DNA of 64,000 nucleotides, from IMG/VR virus record IMGVR_UViG_3300028591_000173, positions 4,799 to 68,798 of that record. The stretch is one strand, 5' to 3'. The position numbers were made by a program, and so were the translations under genes. The notes under the pieces were generated by a model, which saw nothing but the letters and a program-made list of their open reading frames with translations, did not search any database and was not told where the DNA came from. Each line of letters opens with the position of its first letter. Position 1 is the stretch's first letter. Positions 4,790-36,947 of the stretch are shown piece by piece. The DNA comes from a virus.

Positions 4790-4808
4790 CCATAGGGGGT
4801 AACCGAAG

Positions 4809-9137: not shown

Positions 9138-9968
9138 ATGCCGACAACGATCGAAGACCTTGACATAAAGCAGATAGTTATGGAGAAGATCGCCAGCGAG
9201 ATCCAGTCCATCCGCGAGCTCGACAGCGACACATACGGCAAATACAAAGTCACCATAACCAACGAGAGGCAGTTCCTCAGGGAAGACGAATTCGAGCACA
9301 ACACGATCTACCTGGTCGTGAAGTTCCTCGAGGGAAGCAAGGAATTCGGCCAGCAGAAGCAGCCGTTCTCCATAAACGCCATGAGCGAGCACAACGCTTT
9401 CGGCGTGTGCCAGAAGCTCATGATGGACTTCTCCGAGACCTACAACCTCATCTTCGAGTTCAGCAACGCGGAATACACCCTCAGGCAGACTATGACCACG
9501 CCGTCGGCGGTGAGCAACTTCAACGAGGTCTACGCGGGATTCCGCTCGGTTTTCTATATGTCGGGGACGTTCCTGATCGGCATCAACTCCAACCCGATAA
9601 CCGGCATAACGGTCAAGGACGCTGGCGGCCTCAACGAGGAGATAAGGTTCCTCACCGCGCAGTGGACGTTCGAGGCGCAGCCGGACTCCCAGCCTTTCTA
9701 CGGGACGAACGACTTCAACAGGACGGTGGCGAAATCGGCGGCTCTGTCCGTGGGATTCACCATGTACGCGGTGAACACCGATTTCTTCAACGGGGTCATG
9801 GACCTCATATTCAACAAAGACAACAGAGCGGACATAAACAAGACGTACACGCTCTCCATATCGTTCAAGAGCGGGAACGCCTACGAGGTTCCGATGAAGC
9901 TCCTTAGCGTCAGCGGGGCACAGCAGATCAGGGATTTCCCTGCCTGCACCTTCACATTCATGAGGTGA
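9138..9968 (+). CDS. putative virion structural protein (possible tail tube/major tail)
   Basis: 276-aa ORF, beta-rich, just upstream of the giant tail protein. Confidence 0.5.
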   Translation: MPTTIEDLDIKQIVMEKIASEIQSIRELDSDTYGKYKVTITNERQFLREDEFEHNTIYLVVKFLEGSKEFGQQKQPFSINAMSEHNAFGVCQKLMMDFSETYNLIFEFSNAEYTLRQTMTTPSAVSNFNEVYAGFRSVFYMSGTFLIGINSNPITGITVKDAGGLNEEIRFLTAQWTFEAQPDSQPFYGTNDFNRTVAKSAALSVGFTMYAVNTDFFNGVMDLIFNKDNRADINKTYTLSISFKSGNAYEVPMKLLSVSGAQQIRDFPACTFTFMR

Positions 9969-23417: not shown

Positions 23418-23494
23418 CGGGACGTAGCACAGCTTGGTAGTGCGCCTGGTTCGGGACCAGGAGGTCGTGGGTTCGAATCCCATCGTTCCGACCA
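23418..23494 (+). tRNA. tRNA-Pro(CGG): tRNA-Pro (anticodon CGG)
   Basis: hand-folded cloverleaf: C1-G72, D arm GCAC/GTGC, anticodon loop TTCGGGA, T loop TTCGAAT, A73, CCA. Confidence 0.75.
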
Positions 23495-23524
23495 ATTCGA
23501 ATATGCAAAAATAAAATGAAATGC

Positions 23525-23554
23525 TTGACTATTGATAACAAACAATGGTAAAGT
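23525..23554 (+). promoter_or_regulatory. promoter-like TTGACT-N18-TAAAGT inside the tRNA array
   Basis: hexamers 23525-23530 / 23549-23554. Confidence 0.35.
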
Positions 23555-23593
23555 GATCGTGCTGAGGGGAAATCCTCGGCGAAAACCTGTCAT

Positions 23594-23668
23594 CGCGGGG
23601 TGGAGCAGCGGTAGCTCACTAGGTTCATACCCTAGAGGCCGTGGGTCCGAGTCCCACCCCCGCAACCA
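23594..23668 (+). tRNA. tRNA-Met(CAT): tRNA-Met (anticodon CAT), initiator-like C1:A72 mismatch
   Basis: acceptor CGCGGGG/CCCCGCA, anticodon loop TTCATAC, T loop TCCGAGT, CCA. Confidence 0.7.
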
Positions 23669-23669
23669 T

Positions 23670-23743
23670 GCCGCAGTAGTATAGTGGCAGTACCTCTGCT
23701 TCCCAAGCAGATGGCGCGGGTCCGATTCCCGTCTGCGGCTCCA
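23670..23743 (+). tRNA. tRNA-Gly(CCC): tRNA-Gly (anticodon CCC)
   Basis: acceptor GCCGCAG/CTGCGGC, U73, anticodon loop TTCCCAA, CCA. Confidence 0.75.
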
Positions 23744-23763
23744 ACCGAAAACCAAAGAAACAC

Positions 23764-23839
23764 GCCCACTTAGCTCAGAGGATAGAGCGACGACCTCCTA
23801 AGTCGTAGGCCGAGGGTTCGAGTCCTTCAGCGGGCGCCA
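23764..23839 (+). tRNA. tRNA-Arg(CCT): tRNA-Arg (anticodon CCT)
   Basis: TAGCTCAG D region, anticodon loop CTCCTAA, T loop TTCGAGT, CCA; one A:C mismatch in acceptor. Confidence 0.7.
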
Positions 23840-24052
23840 AAAAAGAAACTCAAGCCGCCAAAACAAACCACCAATTCACCACCTAAGCGCAAGGTCTTTG
23901 TAAGAGTGGGCGGCGTGTAGGGGTTAGGGCTGTAAACTCCCTAACCCTCAACCTAAGGACATAAGGCGCCTATTATAAACGACCAGTTCCGGAAAATTTT
24001 CTTTCAAAACTGACGAAAGGGGAGGGGACAACCGGGGCGCCGCCATCATAAT

Positions 24053-24127
24053 TGGGGTATAGCCAAGCGGTAAGGCTCCGGACTCTGAATCCGGGATGCG
24101 CTGGTCCGATCCCAGCTACCCCAACCA
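24053..24127 (+). tRNA. tRNA-Gln(CTG): tRNA-Gln (anticodon CTG)
   Basis: U1-A72, 3-bp D stem as in bacterial tRNA-Gln, anticodon loop CTCTGAA, CCA. Confidence 0.75.
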
Positions 24128-24133
24128 TTTGAT

Positions 24134-24210
24134 GCCTGGGTAACCGAACTGGCATAGGTACTGGCCTCAGAAGCTAGGTTTTGCGGGTCCGAATCCCGCC
24201 CTGGGCACCA
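24134..24210 (+). tRNA. tRNA-Leu?(CAG): tRNA with anticodon CAG (Leu by anticodon) but type-I architecture (5-nt variable loop), A73
   Basis: acceptor GCCTGGG/CCTGGGC (two G:U), anticodon stem CTGGC/GCTAG, loop CTCAGAA, T arm GCGGG-TCCGAAT-CCCGC, CCA. Confidence 0.55.
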
Positions 24211-24256
24211 TCAAAAGGTTGTAATCGGCCCCGTCGGGCCATTATGATAGATATGC

Positions 24257-24332
24257 GCCTGATTAGCTCAGCGGTCAGAGCAGCCGCCTCGTAAGCGGCA
24301 GGTCGGAGGTTTGATTCCTTCATCAGGCACCA
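24257..24332 (+). tRNA. tRNA-Thr(CGT): tRNA-Thr (anticodon CGT)
   Basis: acceptor GCCTGAT/ATCAGGC, TAGCTCAG, anticodon loop CTCGTAA, CCA. Confidence 0.75.
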
Positions 24333-24340
24333 CACAGGAT

Positions 24341-24414
24341 GGGGGCGTAGTTAAGCGGGATAATATCGGTTCCGCAGACCGAAGCCAGGGGTTCGACCCC
24401 CCTCGCCTCCACCA
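24341..24414 (+). tRNA. tRNA-Ala(CGC): tRNA-Ala (anticodon CGC) with G3:U70; unusual C33
   Basis: acceptor GGGGGCG/CGCCTCC, anticodon stem TCGGT/ACCGA, loop TCCGCAG, CCA. Confidence 0.55.
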
Positions 24415-24449: not shown

Positions 24450-26984
24450 ATGGCAACAATTCAAGAACTGGAAAAAAGGTATGAATCCATACCTCTTGAG
24501 ATCAAGAAGACCCGCAGATGGGTTGGCTACAGAGTCGAGGAAAGAGGCGGAAAGCAGACGAAAGTCCCTTATGACGCGATCTTCGGCAAATGGGCGAAAA
24601 GCAATGACCCGTCCACATGGACGACATTCAGCCTAGCCATCTCAGGCGCGGTGAAATACGGATTCGACGGCATCGGGTTCATGCTCGGCAAAGACACCGA
24701 GACCGACACCCATTACCTCGGGATAGACCTGGACAACCACGACGAGCCCGATTTCCAGGAGATCGCGAAGGATTTCATCGATACCCTCAACTCATATACC
24801 GAATATTCCCACAGCGGGAAAGGCATACATATCATATGCAAAGGCAAGAAGCCCGTCGGAAGATGCCGCAAAGCGAACATCGAGATGTACGACAACGGGC
24901 GCTTTTTCACCATGACCGGGAAAGTCATAAAGAACCTCCCAATAGCGCAAAGGGACCAAGAGGTCTACTCGCTATGGGAGAAATACATAGAGGACAAAGA
25001 CCATCCGCTCGAGCTCAACAACGCGTTCGCGGACGATGGAGTCGTGGTCTTCGGCAAGAGCTACAGGGCGGTCACGATAGAGAAGGACCCTCTCTCGGCG
25101 AACATGAGCGACCATGACCTCATGGACAAGATCCGCAACAGCCGATATGGGCAGGAATTCAACGCTTTGTACAACGGCGACATGAGCGCCTACGGCAACG
25201 ACCACAGCAAAGCGGATTTCGCCCTGTGCAAGATCCTCGCGTTCTGGACGGGATGTGACAGGGTTCAGATGGACAGGATATTCAGAGGAAGCGCGCTCAT
25301 CCGCGAGAAATGGGACCAAAAGAGGAGTGAGACCAACAGGAACGGCGTCACCCTCAGCGCGGGCACATTCGGGAGCCAGACCATAGAATACGCCATAGCC
25401 ACCCAGAAGGACGTGTACAGGCCCGTCAAGGAAAGGAACGTCGTCGTGGAGAACACGGGGGCGACCCTCGAGCCGACCACCGACGTGGTGGAGTTCGACG
25501 ACAAGATGGACCCGATCATCCCCGTCAAGAAGATATTCAAGACATACCCGCTCAACGACACAGGCAACGCGGAGAGATTCTACGACTATTTCGGCGAGTG
25601 GTTCAAATTCAACAAGGAAAGCAACGGGTTCATGTTCTGGAACGGGAAGACCTGGACCAAGGACATGAAAGGCTGTGTGAGGAAATACGCGAACAAGCTC
25701 ATAGACATACTCAAAGACGAGGTGAAGAGCACCGAGGAGAGAATAGAGAAGGAGAATGATCCGGACGAGGCCGACACGCTCAAATCCGTCCTCAAGGCGC
25801 AATTAGACAATGTAAAAAGAGTGTCGAATAAAGCCGGCAAGGACGCGATGCTGAGCGAGTTGCACGACCTCCACGACCTGCCTGTCGTGAACAGCGAATT
25901 CGACACGCAGGACTACCTCCTCAACACCGACAGCGGGGTATTCGACCTGCGTGACGGCACGAGGCTTCCGTTCGACAAGAAGCTCATGCTCTCCAAGAAC
26001 ACGAACTGCAAAGTGGATTTCGATACCCCGACTGTGTGGCTCAAGTTCCTCCGCGACATATTCAAGCGCCCCGATTCCAAAGAGACCGAGGAGCTCATCG
26101 AGACCATTCAGATGGCTTTGGGCGAATCGCTTACGGGAAGGACCAACAAAGAGCACCTTTACATCCTCTATGGGAACGGCAGCAACGGAAAATCCACATT
26201 CATCAAGGTCGTCAACGACGTGTTCGGCGATTACGGCACGTCGGTCAACAGCGACCTGCTCGTCCAGAGCAACAGCTCAAGCCAGGCCAACGAATTCTCA
26301 TTGTCGGCCCTGCTTGGGGCGAGAATGGTGTCCACGAGCGAGACCGCCGAGGGCAAGAAGCTCGACGAGGTCATCATCAAGAAGATGCTCGGCGGCGAGA
26401 AGATAAACGCCCAGTTCAAATACGGGCAGCCATTCTCGTTCATGCCATCGTTCAGCCCTTGGATGTCGACCAACAACAAGCCTATCATCCGCGCGACGGA
26501 TTTCGGCACGTGGCGAAGGATCTTCTTCGTCCCGTTCCTCAATACCTTCACGGAGCAGACGAAAGACGTGGAGATGCCTAAGAAACTCGCCGCCGAGGCG
26601 CCTAAGATCCTCGGCTGGATGATAAAGGGCGCGATGCGCCTCCACAACGAATTCAAGGACAAACTCCCGAAGCCGAAATGCCTCGAGGAGGCTCTCAGCG
26701 ACTACAAGAAGGAACTGGACGTCATCGTCGCGTTCCTCAACGACCGCTGCATCCGATTCCCGACGATGTCCATATCGGCATCCGTCCTCTATCAGGAATA
26801 CAAGGAATGGGCCAAGAACAACAACGAATACCTGTTCAGCGAGAGCAGATTCAAGCAGGAGATACCTAAGAAAGGCTACAAACTCCACAAAGACATCAAC
26901 AAAGGCTGGGTGTACGTAGGCCTCAAGCTCGCGAAAGACGAGCGAGGGGTCATATTCGGAAGGAACAGCGAACCTCTATGCTAA
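24450..26984 (+). CDS. DNA primase-helicase: N-terminal prim-pol domain + D5-like SF3 helicase (Walker A GNGSNGKST)
   Basis: 844-aa ORF; prim-pol motifs DLD / SGKGIH; P-loop and Walker B. Confidence 0.8.
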   Translation: MATIQELEKRYESIPLEIKKTRRWVGYRVEERGGKQTKVPYDAIFGKWAKSNDPSTWTTFSLAISGAVKYGFDGIGFMLGKDTETDTHYLGIDLDNHDEPDFQEIAKDFIDTLNSYTEYSHSGKGIHIICKGKKPVGRCRKANIEMYDNGRFFTMTGKVIKNLPIAQRDQEVYSLWEKYIEDKDHPLELNNAFADDGVVVFGKSYRAVTIEKDPLSANMSDHDLMDKIRNSRYGQEFNALYNGDMSAYGNDHSKADFALCKILAFWTGCDRVQMDRIFRGSALIREKWDQKRSETNRNGVTLSAGTFGSQTIEYAIATQKDVYRPVKERNVVVENTGATLEPTTDVVEFDDKMDPIIPVKKIFKTYPLNDTGNAERFYDYFGEWFKFNKESNGFMFWNGKTWTKDMKGCVRKYANKLIDILKDEVKSTEERIEKENDPDEADTLKSVLKAQLDNVKRVSNKAGKDAMLSELHDLHDLPVVNSEFDTQDYLLNTDSGVFDLRDGTRLPFDKKLMLSKNTNCKVDFDTPTVWLKFLRDIFKRPDSKETEELIETIQMALGESLTGRTNKEHLYILYGNGSNGKSTFIKVVNDVFGDYGTSVNSDLLVQSNSSSQANEFSLSALLGARMVSTSETAEGKKLDEVIIKKMLGGEKINAQFKYGQPFSFMPSFSPWMSTNNKPIIRATDFGTWRRIFFVPFLNTFTEQTKDVEMPKKLAAEAPKILGWMIKGAMRLHNEFKDKLPKPKCLEEALSDYKKELDVIVAFLNDRCIRFPTMSISASVLYQEYKEWAKNNNEYLFSESRFKQEIPKKGYKLHKDINKGWVYVGLKLAKDERGVIFGRNSEPLC

Positions 26985-32621: not shown

Positions 32622-32644
32622 GAGCGGGGCATCCCGCTCTTTAT
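32622..32644 (+). terminator. intrinsic terminator GAGCGGG-GCAT-CCCGCTC + TTTAT
   Basis: 7-bp GC stem directly after the SPFH stop. Confidence 0.5.
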
Positions 32645-32727
32645 GGGCCCATGGTTCAAAGGCAGAACGGGCGGCAAAGACCGTCAGACCCGCGTTCGAT
32701 CCGCGGTGGACCCAACTGAAAAAAGAT

Positions 32728-35399: not shown

Positions 35400-36947
35400 G
35401 TGAGGACCGACATTTTCACAGAAGAGAACGGCGTAAGGGACTTCGACGTACAGAAGATATTCGGCAAAGGCTACAACAACGGCCTCTTTTTCAATTTCAA
35501 GGGGAGATACCGCTTCTATGTCGGCTCCCGTTCGTCCAAGAAATCCCAGAACATGCTTGGGTATGAGCCGATACTCAAGATCCTCTCCGACCCGAGGAGG
35601 AACATCGTCATGTGCCGTCAGAACGATGTCGACAACAAGAATTCCACGTACGCGAACCTCATAAAATGCATAGAGGATCTGGGCCTCACATCCGAATTCG
35701 CCATAAGGAAGCAGCCGCTTGAGATCGAATACAAGAGGACCGGGCAGATGATAGTCTTCAAAGGCCTCAACAACCCTACCAGCATCACCTCGTCCAAATT
35801 CCCGCATGGCGAGCTTACGGACATCTACATAGAAGAGGCCTACGAATGCCAGAATTATGACGATTTCCTCAAGCTCGACGGCTCCCTCCGCGTCAGCGGC
35901 GAGCTTGCCAAGGAGATAGGCATACAGATAACCTGCGTCATGAACCCATGGTCCCCGGACCATTGGATCTTCACCGAGATATTCAGGGGAAGGCTCGAGC
36001 CGACCGAGGAATACATGGAGACCCACAAATACGACGATTACAGGGACGACGACTACGTCGGGCCTTTCGGCAAGGGCCTCTACCTCCACCAGTCCAACTA
36101 CAAGATCAACGAATTCAGGGACAGGGAGAGCTGGGATCCCGCGGCCGAGCAGATGAAGAAGAGGTCGCCTGAGCTCTACAAGCCGAACTTCCTCGGGCTT
36201 TTCGGGGCCACCACCGGCCTCGCCTACCCGGAATTCTCCACGGCCTGCTACGTCACCGCCCAGGAAGTCATGTCCATGACCGACATAACCGAATTCGCCA
36301 TAGGCATCGACACCGGCCTCTCAAACGGCGAGGGCAAGAAGATAACCATAAAGAAGGGCGAGGACCCGGACCTGAAGATTCGCTCCGCCACGACCATGTC
36401 GCTCGTGGGCGTCACGAGGGATTTCGGCAAGGTCATCGTCGTCGACGAGTACTTCCACTCGAACGACATGTCCTCCAACCAGACCAACACCGACAACAGG
36501 GAGAGCCTGAAGCACCCTGAGCTCATAAAGCAGTGCATCCTCTACATATCGAAGTGGATCGACAAGTACGGGAGGAACCAGACCAAGGGCAACCTGCTCA
36601 TGAAAGGCACGATAAACGTCTACGTGGACAACGCCGACATAGCCACCATACAGGGCCTCGAGATGGAGCTCAGAAGGGTGGGCCTGTTCAACGTCAACGT
36701 GATGGGCTGCACCAAGAAGAGCATCCAGACCCGCGTCGACTTCACGAGGATCCTGATGAGCTACGACTCGTTCAAGATATGCGCCGAGAACTGCCCGAAC
36801 GGCATCAGGGAGTACAAGGCCGCGAGGAAAGGCGAGAAAGGCGAGCCGAGGGCCCCTGGCAACGACCACTACATCGACAGCTGCGACTATGCGTGGGCCC
36901 CATTCTGCACAGAGCTGACCCTCTGGAAATCGTTCAAGGAGCATTAG
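35400..36947 (+). CDS. terL: terminase large subunit (ATPase + nuclease)
   Basis: 515 aa; deviant Walker A VGSRSSKKS, Walker B DIYIEEAYE, nuclease motifs GIDTG / VDEYFH; GTG start with SD aggaag. Confidence 0.75.
   Translation: MRTDIFTEENGVRDFDVQKIFGKGYNNGLFFNFKGRYRFYVGSRSSKKSQNMLGYEPILKILSDPRRNIVMCRQNDVDNKNSTYANLIKCIEDLGLTSEFAIRKQPLEIEYKRTGQMIVFKGLNNPTSITSSKFPHGELTDIYIEEAYECQNYDDFLKLDGSLRVSGELAKEIGIQITCVMNPWSPDHWIFTEIFRGRLEPTEEYMETHKYDDYRDDDYVGPFGKGLYLHQSNYKINEFRDRESWDPAAEQMKKRSPELYKPNFLGLFGATTGLAYPEFSTACYVTAQEVMSMTDITEFAIGIDTGLSNGEGKKITIKKGEDPDLKIRSATTMSLVGVTRDFGKVIVVDEYFHSNDMSSNQTNTDNRESLKHPELIKQCILYISKWIDKYGRNQTKGNLLMKGTINVYVDNADIATIQGLEMELRRVGLFNVNVMGCTKKSIQTRVDFTRILMSYDSFKICAENCPNGIREYKAARKGEKGEPRAPGNDHYIDSCDYAWAPFCTELTLWKSFKEH

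Follow-up and report, generated by a model that had tools for sequence, protein, structure and literature searches.

The window analysed here is a 64,000-nucleotide (nt) stretch of viral DNA (IMG/VR record IMGVR_UViG_3300028591_000173, positions 4,799 to 68,798), and on its + strand, at 24134-24210, it carries a transfer RNA (tRNA) gene with the leucine anticodon CAG and a short variable arm. In all likelihood the gene specifies a functional short-arm tRNA-Leu that is charged, we infer, by the host's leucyl-tRNA synthetase (LeuRS) and reads CUG, its anticodon having come from a UAG-type ancestor in a switch from U34 to C34. The tRNA is an ordinary member of the short-arm tRNA-Leu, which are already documented biochemically in Streptomyces and functionally in phage T5. 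The initial annotation had left the choice between a highly unusual tRNA-Leu and a tRNA of some other identity. A genuine tRNA-Leu is now strongly favoured, but "highly unusual" does not describe a type that is frequent in phages, including about 300 T5-like records, and occurs in actinobacteria and Synechococcus. The departure from the textbook rule that bacterial tRNA-Leu is type II was correctly seen: the body is class I and the anticodon is that of Leu.

The gene and its cloverleaf

ARAGORN calls a 77-nt tRNA-Leu(cag) at 24134-24210 on the + strand, with the anticodon at position 35 of the molecule. The general Rfam tRNA model, RF00005, aligns full length to 24134-24207 in the same register as ARAGORN, with 48.8 bits (E = 3.4e-8) against a gathering score of 29. 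The initial annotation had named a covariance score below the tRNA threshold, a hidden long arm or a different anticodon as findings that would undo it; the score lies above the threshold, and neither a long arm nor another anticodon appeared. Every structural detail that it had read from the letters (77-nt class-I fold, CAG anticodon, 5-nt variable loop, A73 and CCA) is borne out by ARAGORN, Rfam and the sequence. The parts of the gene are as follows (bp, base pair).

24134..24210, + strand: short-arm (type I) tRNA-Leu(CAG) gene, 77 nt, CCA encoded (ARAGORN, Rfam RF00005, family covariance model R1)
24143..24159, + strand: Leu-type D arm, 3-bp stem plus G13.A22, loop A14 A15 C16 U17 G18 G19 C20 A20a U21 (sequence, Rfam alignment)
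24168..24170, + strand: anticodon CAG, which reads CUG, in the loop C32 U33 C34 A35 G36 A37 A38 (sequence, ARAGORN, Rfam)
24178..24182, + strand: variable loop of 5 nt, G44 U45 U46 U47 U48 (GUUUU) (sequence)
24183..24199, + strand: T arm GCGGG-UCCGAAU-CCCGC, with C55 replacing the usual U55 (sequence)
24207, + strand: discriminator A73 (sequence)

The encoded CCA occupies 24208-24210. The acceptor stem, GCCUGGG/CCUGGGC, contains two G:U-type pairs (U4.G69 and G5.U68), and the anticodon stem, CUGGC/GCUAG, a single G.U pair. In the D stem A10 pairs with U25, C11 with G24 and C12 with G23, while 13.22 is a G.A mismatch; U48 is able to form the A15:U48 Levitt pair. ARAGORN and Rfam agree on a 7-bp acceptor stem and 5-bp anticodon and T stems, which along with a variable loop of 4-5 nt characterize the short-arm type. 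A type II tRNA has a stem-loop variable arm of more than 10 nt; the loop here has 5 nt, and since the whole molecule measures 77 nt, there is no room for a long extra arm. The gene is thus confirmed as a real class-I tRNA with a Leu anticodon. A suppressor identity was considered and ruled out: CAG is complementary to none of the stop codons UAG, UAA and UGA, and the anticodon loop is a standard one of 7 nt with U33.

Orthologues in related phages

No close relative was found among GenBank phages, where blastn of the tRNA cluster that contains the gene gave scattered tRNA matches only. A primase-based search for related loci in IMG/VR confirmed no locus; a protein search returned hundreds of primase homologues on metagenomic contigs of 60-85 kb. 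Twelve loci around such homologues were fetched for comparison, among them L001, L002 and L009. L001, whose primase is 98% identical, has an identical copy of the tRNA-Leu at 9685-9761. L002, with a primase of 80% identity, has a 77-nt tRNA-Leu(UAG) in the same place in the cluster, and L009 has three adjacent 77-nt tRNA-Leu genes with the anticodons UAG, CAA and UAA. The window gene is orthologous to the tRNA-Leu(UAG) of these relatives. In both L002 and L009 the D arm, U48 and A73 are kept, and compensatory changes relative to the window fall in three stems, those of the acceptor, anticodon and T arms. No long-arm tRNA-Leu occurs in this phage family, taken as the window and the fetched relatives, and a near-exact tRNA pattern with a gap of 8-30 nt to accommodate a possible long arm had no match in IMG/VR.

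Short calls of "tRNA-Ser" in the relatives are a different matter. A homologous AT-rich, weak-stemmed tRNA-like element follows the DUF2828 gene in L002 (8814-8884), L011 (9033-9103), L005 (9415-9483) and L003 (8888-8957); its apparent anticodon varies between GCA ("Cys"), GCU ("Ser"), UGA ("Ser") and a loop of two bases that cannot be read. It is this element, and not a true short-arm tRNA-Ser, that lies behind the short "tRNA-Ser" calls. The number of tRNA genes varies widely among close relatives, from 0 to 18, and genes for GIY-YIG and HNH homing endonucleases lie within or beside the tRNA clusters of L002, L003, L009 and L010.

A family of short-arm leucine tRNAs

The wider family was sought with a degenerate pattern drawn from five sequences, in which positions 8-25 and the flanks of the loops were specified along with U48 and the T loop, and the anticodon was left free (NNN). 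At least 119 IMG/VR contigs matched. Over the fetched loci, with L001, L002 and L009 included, there are 125 matches, whose anticodons are UAA (78), CAA (23), UAG (18), AAG (3), CAG (1) and GUU (1), with one incomplete. Leu anticodons are therefore carried by 123 of the 125, the other two being one Asn (GTT) and one that is unreadable. Every readable viral Leu match has A73, and the lone GUU tRNA has G73; U48 was fixed by the pattern, so its conservation in the viral scan is not independent. For cellular genomes, position 48 was relaxed to Y and one genome was scanned for each of 185,579 bacterial and archaeal species. The result was 48 loci with 49 hits, all with A73 and with the anticodons UAA, CAA or UAG only; position 48 is T in 49 of 49, though C or T was permitted. 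Some of these hits are solitary chromosomal genes without an encoded CCA, as in Synechococcus RCC307 and MIT S9452 and in the actinobacteria Thermobifida, Pseudonocardia and Marinactinospora, and others lie in dense phage-like tRNA arrays on contigs of metagenome-assembled genomes. A second pattern, aimed at the CAG anticodon with A37 or G37 allowed, found short-arm CAG tRNAs on 65 IMG/VR contigs. They comprise 59 distinct sequences, all with A73 and nearly all with a full 7-bp acceptor stem. By these scans, the short-arm tRNA-Leu is widespread in phages, where a single narrow pattern matched at least 119 contigs and the CAG version by itself is on 65, and far rarer in cellular genomes. The confinement of the anticodons to both Leu codon boxes, together with the constant A73, indicates that the family is one of leucine tRNAs.

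The fold was assessed on a gapless alignment (A3) of 59 distinct matches to the pattern, which had constrained no stem positions other than those of the D stem and of two pairs in the T stem. In this alignment 98.6% of the cells of the class-I cloverleaf are paired, and changes on both sides of a pair, that is, compensatory ones, are seen in 16 of 20 pairs. The covariation score is 0.815, compared with 0.196 in shuffles; neither the paired percentage nor the covariation was equalled in any of 500 shuffles, and controls with a slid register were 33-49% paired. A covariance model (R1) was built from 54 IMG/VR sequences, with the window tRNA and its relatives left out. It gives the window tRNA-Leu 80.4 bits (E = 7.5e-25), the next window tRNAs being Ile (47.5), Gln (46.9) and Thr (46.7). 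The gene is thus a member of the family by a model to which it did not contribute.

One viral contig, L084 (IMGVR_UViG_3300000177_000009), carries short-arm tRNA-Leu with five anticodons, CAA, CAG, AAG, UAG and UAA. Its Leu CAA, CAG and AAG tRNAs share the D arm UAGACAAAUUGGUAAAGUC, which is nearly the same as that of a T5-like 77-nt tRNA-Glu(UUC) with G73 (L033/L043/L053).

Leucine identity without the long arm

In Escherichia coli, Leu identity resides in A73, A14, the A15-U48 Levitt pair, G18G19, A20a and contacts of the D loop with the T loop (PMC9976931; PMC6614811). The anticodon and the long arm are dispensable for it, and armless variants are still active (PMC9976931). Serine identity, in contrast, depends on the long arm (PMC9976931; PMC6614811). 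The window tRNA has the set that E. coli LeuRS uses (U8, A14, A15, G18, G19, A20a, U48, U54, C56, A58 and A73), and the contacts U8:A14, A15:U48, U54:A58 and G19:C56 can all be formed. The comparison with LeuRS rules that the initial annotation had proposed therefore finds every element in place except G18:U55. The D-loop motif AAY(N)GGYAKA is present in 102 of 116 distinct short tRNA-Leu of the fetched phage loci, a figure inflated by the retrieval of most loci with a pattern containing that motif, in 15 of 30 long tRNA-Leu and in at most 14% of any other isotype. The Leu-type D arm is not exclusive, since the T5-like tRNA-Glu has a similar one, but with G73.

Among the tRNA-Leu of these phage loci, 172 are short and 47 long, a ratio biased by the choice of loci for short Leu; free of that bias, the long arm is kept in 99 of 102 tRNA-Ser and in 47 of 47 tRNA-Tyr. 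Loss of the arm is specific to Leu, and Ser and Tyr retain theirs. This agrees with the established independence of E. coli LeuRS from the arm. According to a review of tRNA identity from 2023, tRNA-Leu has the long arm everywhere except in animal mitochondria (PMC9976931), and within the literature library that was searched we found no description of a phage type I tRNA-Leu class.

Origin of the CAG anticodon

Codons were counted in a crude set of 72 long + strand open reading frames (ORFs) of the window. CUG, which the initial annotation had taken for the dominant Leu codon, is only the second most used (27%), behind CUC (48%). The codons covered by the tRNA set of the phage are well used: CCG 49%, CAG 76%, AGG 45% (of Arg), AUA 40% (of Ile), GCG 36%, ACG 34%, GGG 29% and CUG 27%. 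Descent from AT-rich relatives, in which AGA and AUA are the codons used, explains the high AGG and AUA. The lineage of the window and L001 has a GC content of 55%, compared with 32-43% in the relatives, and only in the window and L001 do NNG codons exceed NNA codons for Leu, Pro, Gly, Thr, Ala, Arg and Gln.

The tRNA set matches this codon usage. When the cluster is compared with L002 (8814-10048) and L009 (7778-10141), six of the seven elongator tRNAs find their best match in a tRNA of the same isotype that has U34. The pairs, window first and relatives second, are Pro CGG/UGG, Gly CCC/UCC, Gln CUG/UUG, Leu CAG/UAG, Thr CGU/UGU and Ala CGC/UGC. For Arg, CCU/UCU, there is a near tie (tRNA-Thr 0.67, Arg(UCU) 0.66). 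The CAG anticodon of the window is thus one instance of a concerted switch from U34 to C34 across the cluster, tracking the codon shift. A switch in step with the shift from NNA to NNG is expected of tRNAs that actually decode. The lineage also provides a clear natural case in which an entire phage tRNA set moved from U34 to C34 in step with GC content and codon usage.

These observations suggest the following course of events. As the GC content of the lineage rose to 55% from about 32-43% and its codons shifted from NNA to NNG, the CAG anticodon would have been derived from a UAG-type ancestor. The gene would be transcribed from the phage tRNA cluster, and its product would be charged with leucine by the host LeuRS, which is expected to recognize A73 and the Leu-type D arm and elbow (U8:A14, A15:U48, G18G19, A20a and U54:A58) and to need neither the anticodon nor the extra arm. 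On the ribosome, C34 would let the tRNA-Leu read CUG.

Weighing the alternatives

Several points weigh against a functional tRNA-Leu. G18:U55, a Leu determinant in E. coli (PMC6614811; PMC9976931), cannot form with C55, and this could lower charging. E. coli LeuRS failed to charge the type I tRNA-Leu of Streptomyces coelicolor in vitro (PMC6614811), so acceptance of a short arm depends on the LeuRS. On the general Rfam tRNA model, the window tRNA-Leu scores lowest in its cluster. Single-sequence thermodynamic folding gives no cloverleaf, and its result does not surpass that of shuffles (z = -0.09); it is covariance models and covariation among homologues, not folding energy, that support the cloverleaf. 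Position 37 is also atypical. The E. coli tRNA-Leu that reads CUN codons has G37 (as m1G), while the window tRNA-Leu has A37, though A37 is shared by 42 of the 59 distinct short-arm CAG tRNAs, the other 17 having G37.

Some of these features are also what would be displayed by a tRNA-like gene that is decaying or non-translational and does not decode CUG, such as one serving as a decoy for a tRNA nuclease of the host: the lowest general tRNA score in the cluster, C55, and a minimum-free-energy fold that is not a cloverleaf. We regard this as very unlikely. The four stems are intact, and the compensatory changes seen in comparison with L002 and L009 imply that the fold is under purifying selection. 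The anticodon tracked the codon shift along with the other tRNAs of the cluster, as is expected only of a decoding tRNA. Moreover, C55 is also found in the phage's initiator-like, Gly and Gln tRNAs, and is therefore a habit of the lineage rather than decay of the tRNA-Leu. That the tRNA reads CUG and is charged with another amino acid, by mischarging or recoding, is highly improbable, even though the class-I body lacks the arm that textbooks tie to Leu and C55 and A37 are atypical. More than 200 family sequences carry only anticodons of the Leu boxes (UAA, CAA, UAG, AAG and CAG) together with A73, and a non-leucine identity would not confine anticodons to both boxes. The same finding speaks against the mischarging or decoy tRNA that the initial annotation had entertained. 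Further, CUG is used by the phage at an ordinary Leu frequency, and determinants for other synthetases are absent (no G3:U70; no U35, C35 or G35) by established identity rules (including PMC9976931).

The initial annotation had also raised the possibility of a Gln-type tRNA with a mutated anticodon. Such a paralogue of the adjacent tRNA-Gln (UUG or CUG changed to CAG) is suggested by the anticodon loops, CUCAGAA and CUCUGAA, which are one base apart, and by the distance of 6 nt between the genes. We consider this origin next to inconceivable, and it was rejected on global alignments of the window tRNA-Leu to 1465 ARAGORN tRNAs from all fetched loci. Median scores by class were 22 for short-arm Leu, 11.4 for long-arm Leu and 6.8 for Gln, so that beyond its own family the nearest class is long-arm tRNA-Leu. 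The score to the adjacent tRNA-Gln itself, 11.3, does not exceed those to the window Gly (14.8) and Ile (11.4). Glutaminyl-tRNA synthetase of E. coli looks for U35, G73, a weak 1-72 pair and G10. The window tRNA-Leu has A35, A73, G1-C72 and A10 instead, whereas the adjacent tRNA-Gln has U1-A72 and G10. In related phages, finally, the orthologue in the same place in the cluster is Leu(UAG). The annotation is thus settled as tRNA-Leu(CAG), and as nothing points to recoding, Leu is the residue to assign to CUG in translations.

A possible adaptive loss of the arm

Loss of the long arm in phage tRNA-Leu could be adaptive rather than neutral streamlining, allowing leucine decoding to survive an attack on type II tRNAs; on present evidence we hold this to be unlikely. 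The attacker might be an arm-recognizing defence nuclease of the host or the host-shutoff activity of the phage itself. Because LeuRS does not need the arm, Leu would be the sole type II isotype able to shed it, and the retention of the arm in Ser and Tyr would be accounted for. A second evasion of the same sort might lie in the T loops with C55 that recur in the window phage. The T loop U54-C55-C56 is found in four tRNAs of the cluster (Met, Gly, Gln and Leu). It is rare overall, in 31 of the 1465 tRNAs of the fetched phage loci, and concentrated in a few phages (L013, L014, L038, L073 and L103). Arm-directed specificity is seen in human Schlafens. The one bacterial Schlafen that has been studied cuts within the anticodon arm of tRNAs for Lys and Met and of the T5 tRNA for Ala; these are type I, and the enzyme is not specific for type II (PMC13056530), so it lends no support to arm-directed defence in bacteria. 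The variable arm is not discussed in the eLife paper on phage tRNAs that evade nucleases.

The tRNA cluster and the phage

ARAGORN finds ten tRNA-like genes in the window, eight of them clustered at 23418-24414 on the + strand. The features around the tRNA-Leu gene and the two landmark genes are as follows.

23418..24414, + strand: phage tRNA cluster, Pro(CGG), initiator-like Met(CAU), Gly(CCC), Arg(CCU), Gln(CUG), Leu(CAG), Thr(CGU), Ala(CGC) (ARAGORN, Rfam)
23594-23668, + strand: tRNA-Met, initiator-like (ARAGORN/Rfam)
23670-23743, + strand: tRNA-Gly (ARAGORN/Rfam)
24025..24052, + strand: promoter-like site, a weak consensus match (9/12 hexamer matches), abutting tRNA-Gln just upstream of the Gln-Leu pair
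24053-24127, + strand: tRNA-Gln, 6 nt from tRNA-Leu (ARAGORN/Rfam)
24341-24414, + strand: tRNA-Ala(CGC), bearing G3.U70 (ARAGORN)
24450-26984: NrS-1-like primase-polymerase/D5 helicase, directly after the tRNA cluster
35400-36947: large terminase

The window is a tailed-phage genome with a GC content of about 55%, whose long ORFs are all on one strand up to about 60 kb; it also encodes a helicase, a PDDEXK protein and DUF669. In the tRNA-Met we recognize a bacterial type of initiator, with a C1.A72 mismatch in the acceptor CGCGGGG...CCCCGCA, which argues that the host is bacterial. The anticodon stem of the E. coli initiator tRNA has three consecutive G-C pairs, and that of the window tRNA-Met has two of the three. 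An archaeal origin was briefly weighed in view of the high AGG and AUA and then dropped, given the bacterial-type initiator tRNA and the explanation of the bias by AT-rich ancestry.

In the region, 4 promoter-like sites were found where 0.8 were expected. The spacer between tRNA-Arg and tRNA-Gln, at 23840-24052, is 213 nt long and contains a hairpin, GGGUUAGGG...CCCUAACCC, at about 23921-23948. In Rfam, the tRNA-Ala(CGC) appears not as a tRNA but as a sub-threshold match to tmRNA (transfer-messenger RNA; 37.7 bits, cut-off 47), a result of clan competition. Outside the cluster, directly after a Band_7/SPFH gene, ARAGORN calls a "tRNA-???" with a two-base anticodon at 32644-32716 (+). This element has a good T arm, CCGCG-UUCGAUC-CGCGG; Rfam reports nothing for it at E <= 1, and ARAGORN makes no such call in L001.

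A census of the phage class combined with a biochemical test could be a modest but useful contribution. Such work would have a bearing on tRNA annotation pipelines, on the co-evolution of tRNA and LeuRS, and on how compact orthogonal suppressor tRNAs of the Leu type are designed.

Comparison with known systems

The closest known counterpart is tRNA-Leu2 of phage T5. The commonest family member, GGGGGUGUAAUCGAAUUGGCAUAGGUACUGGACUUAAAAUUCAGGUUUUGUGGGUUCGAAUCCCACCACCCCUACCA, is T5 tRNA-Leu2 itself, identical in about 300 T5-like GenBank records, where it is annotated as tRNA-Leu. T5 tRNA-Leu2(UAA) (AJ604531.1, tRNAL2) has 77 nt and, over 61 nt, shares 82% identity with the window tRNA. The two are of the same sub-type and have nearly the same core, with the D arm UAAYCGAAYUGGCAUAGGU, the variable loop GUUUU, A73 and an encoded CCA, and both lie in a phage tRNA cluster. 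T5 tRNA-Leu2 differs in its anticodon (UAA rather than CAG), in having U55 rather than C55, and in belonging to another phage family with another host. In addition, T5-like phages have a long-arm tRNA-Leu(UAG), whereas the phage family of the window has short-arm Leu only. The GenBank record of T5 tRNA-Leu2 states that [quoted passage not shown] (AJ604531.1). Amber suppression by the CUA variant indicates that in E. coli neither the charging nor the use of this tRNA depends on its anticodon.

The biochemical precedent is the type I tRNA-Leu(CAA) of S. coelicolor, which is leucylated in vitro by its own LeuRS (ScoLeuRS) with about half the efficiency of a type II isoacceptor (Fan et al., 2019, NAR; PMC6614811). 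Like the window tRNA, it is bacterial in type and has a variable loop of 5 nt; the leucylation shown there depends on U8:A14 (PMC6614811). It differs in being chromosomal and essential, in its CAA anticodon, and in a variable loop ACAGC with C48, as opposed to GUUUU with U48. A73 is not an identity element for ScoLeuRS (PMC6614811). The chromosomal genes of Thermobifida, Pseudonocardia and Marinactinospora, which resemble that of S. coelicolor, match the family pattern; unlike the window tRNA-Leu, these actinobacterial hits have no encoded CCA.

Animal mitochondrial tRNA-Leu and engineered E. coli tRNA-Leu without variable and anticodon arms show that charging by LeuRS is possible without a long arm, given A73 and the contacts of the D loop with the T loop (PMC9976931). 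They differ from the window tRNA in being organellar or artificial, and the likeness is functional, without demonstrated sequence kinship. Mitochondrial tRNA-Leu is not charged by ScoLeuRS (PMC6614811).

The canonical type II molecules, such as E. coli tRNA-Leu(CAG), differ from the window tRNA in their variable arm of at least 10 nt and in their D stem, where G10-C25 and G12-C23 take the place of A10-U25 and C12-G23. In other respects the two are alike: both have a Leu anticodon, A73, a 3-bp D stem with a 13.22 mismatch, the D loop A14 A15 .. G18 G19. A20a, and A15:U48.

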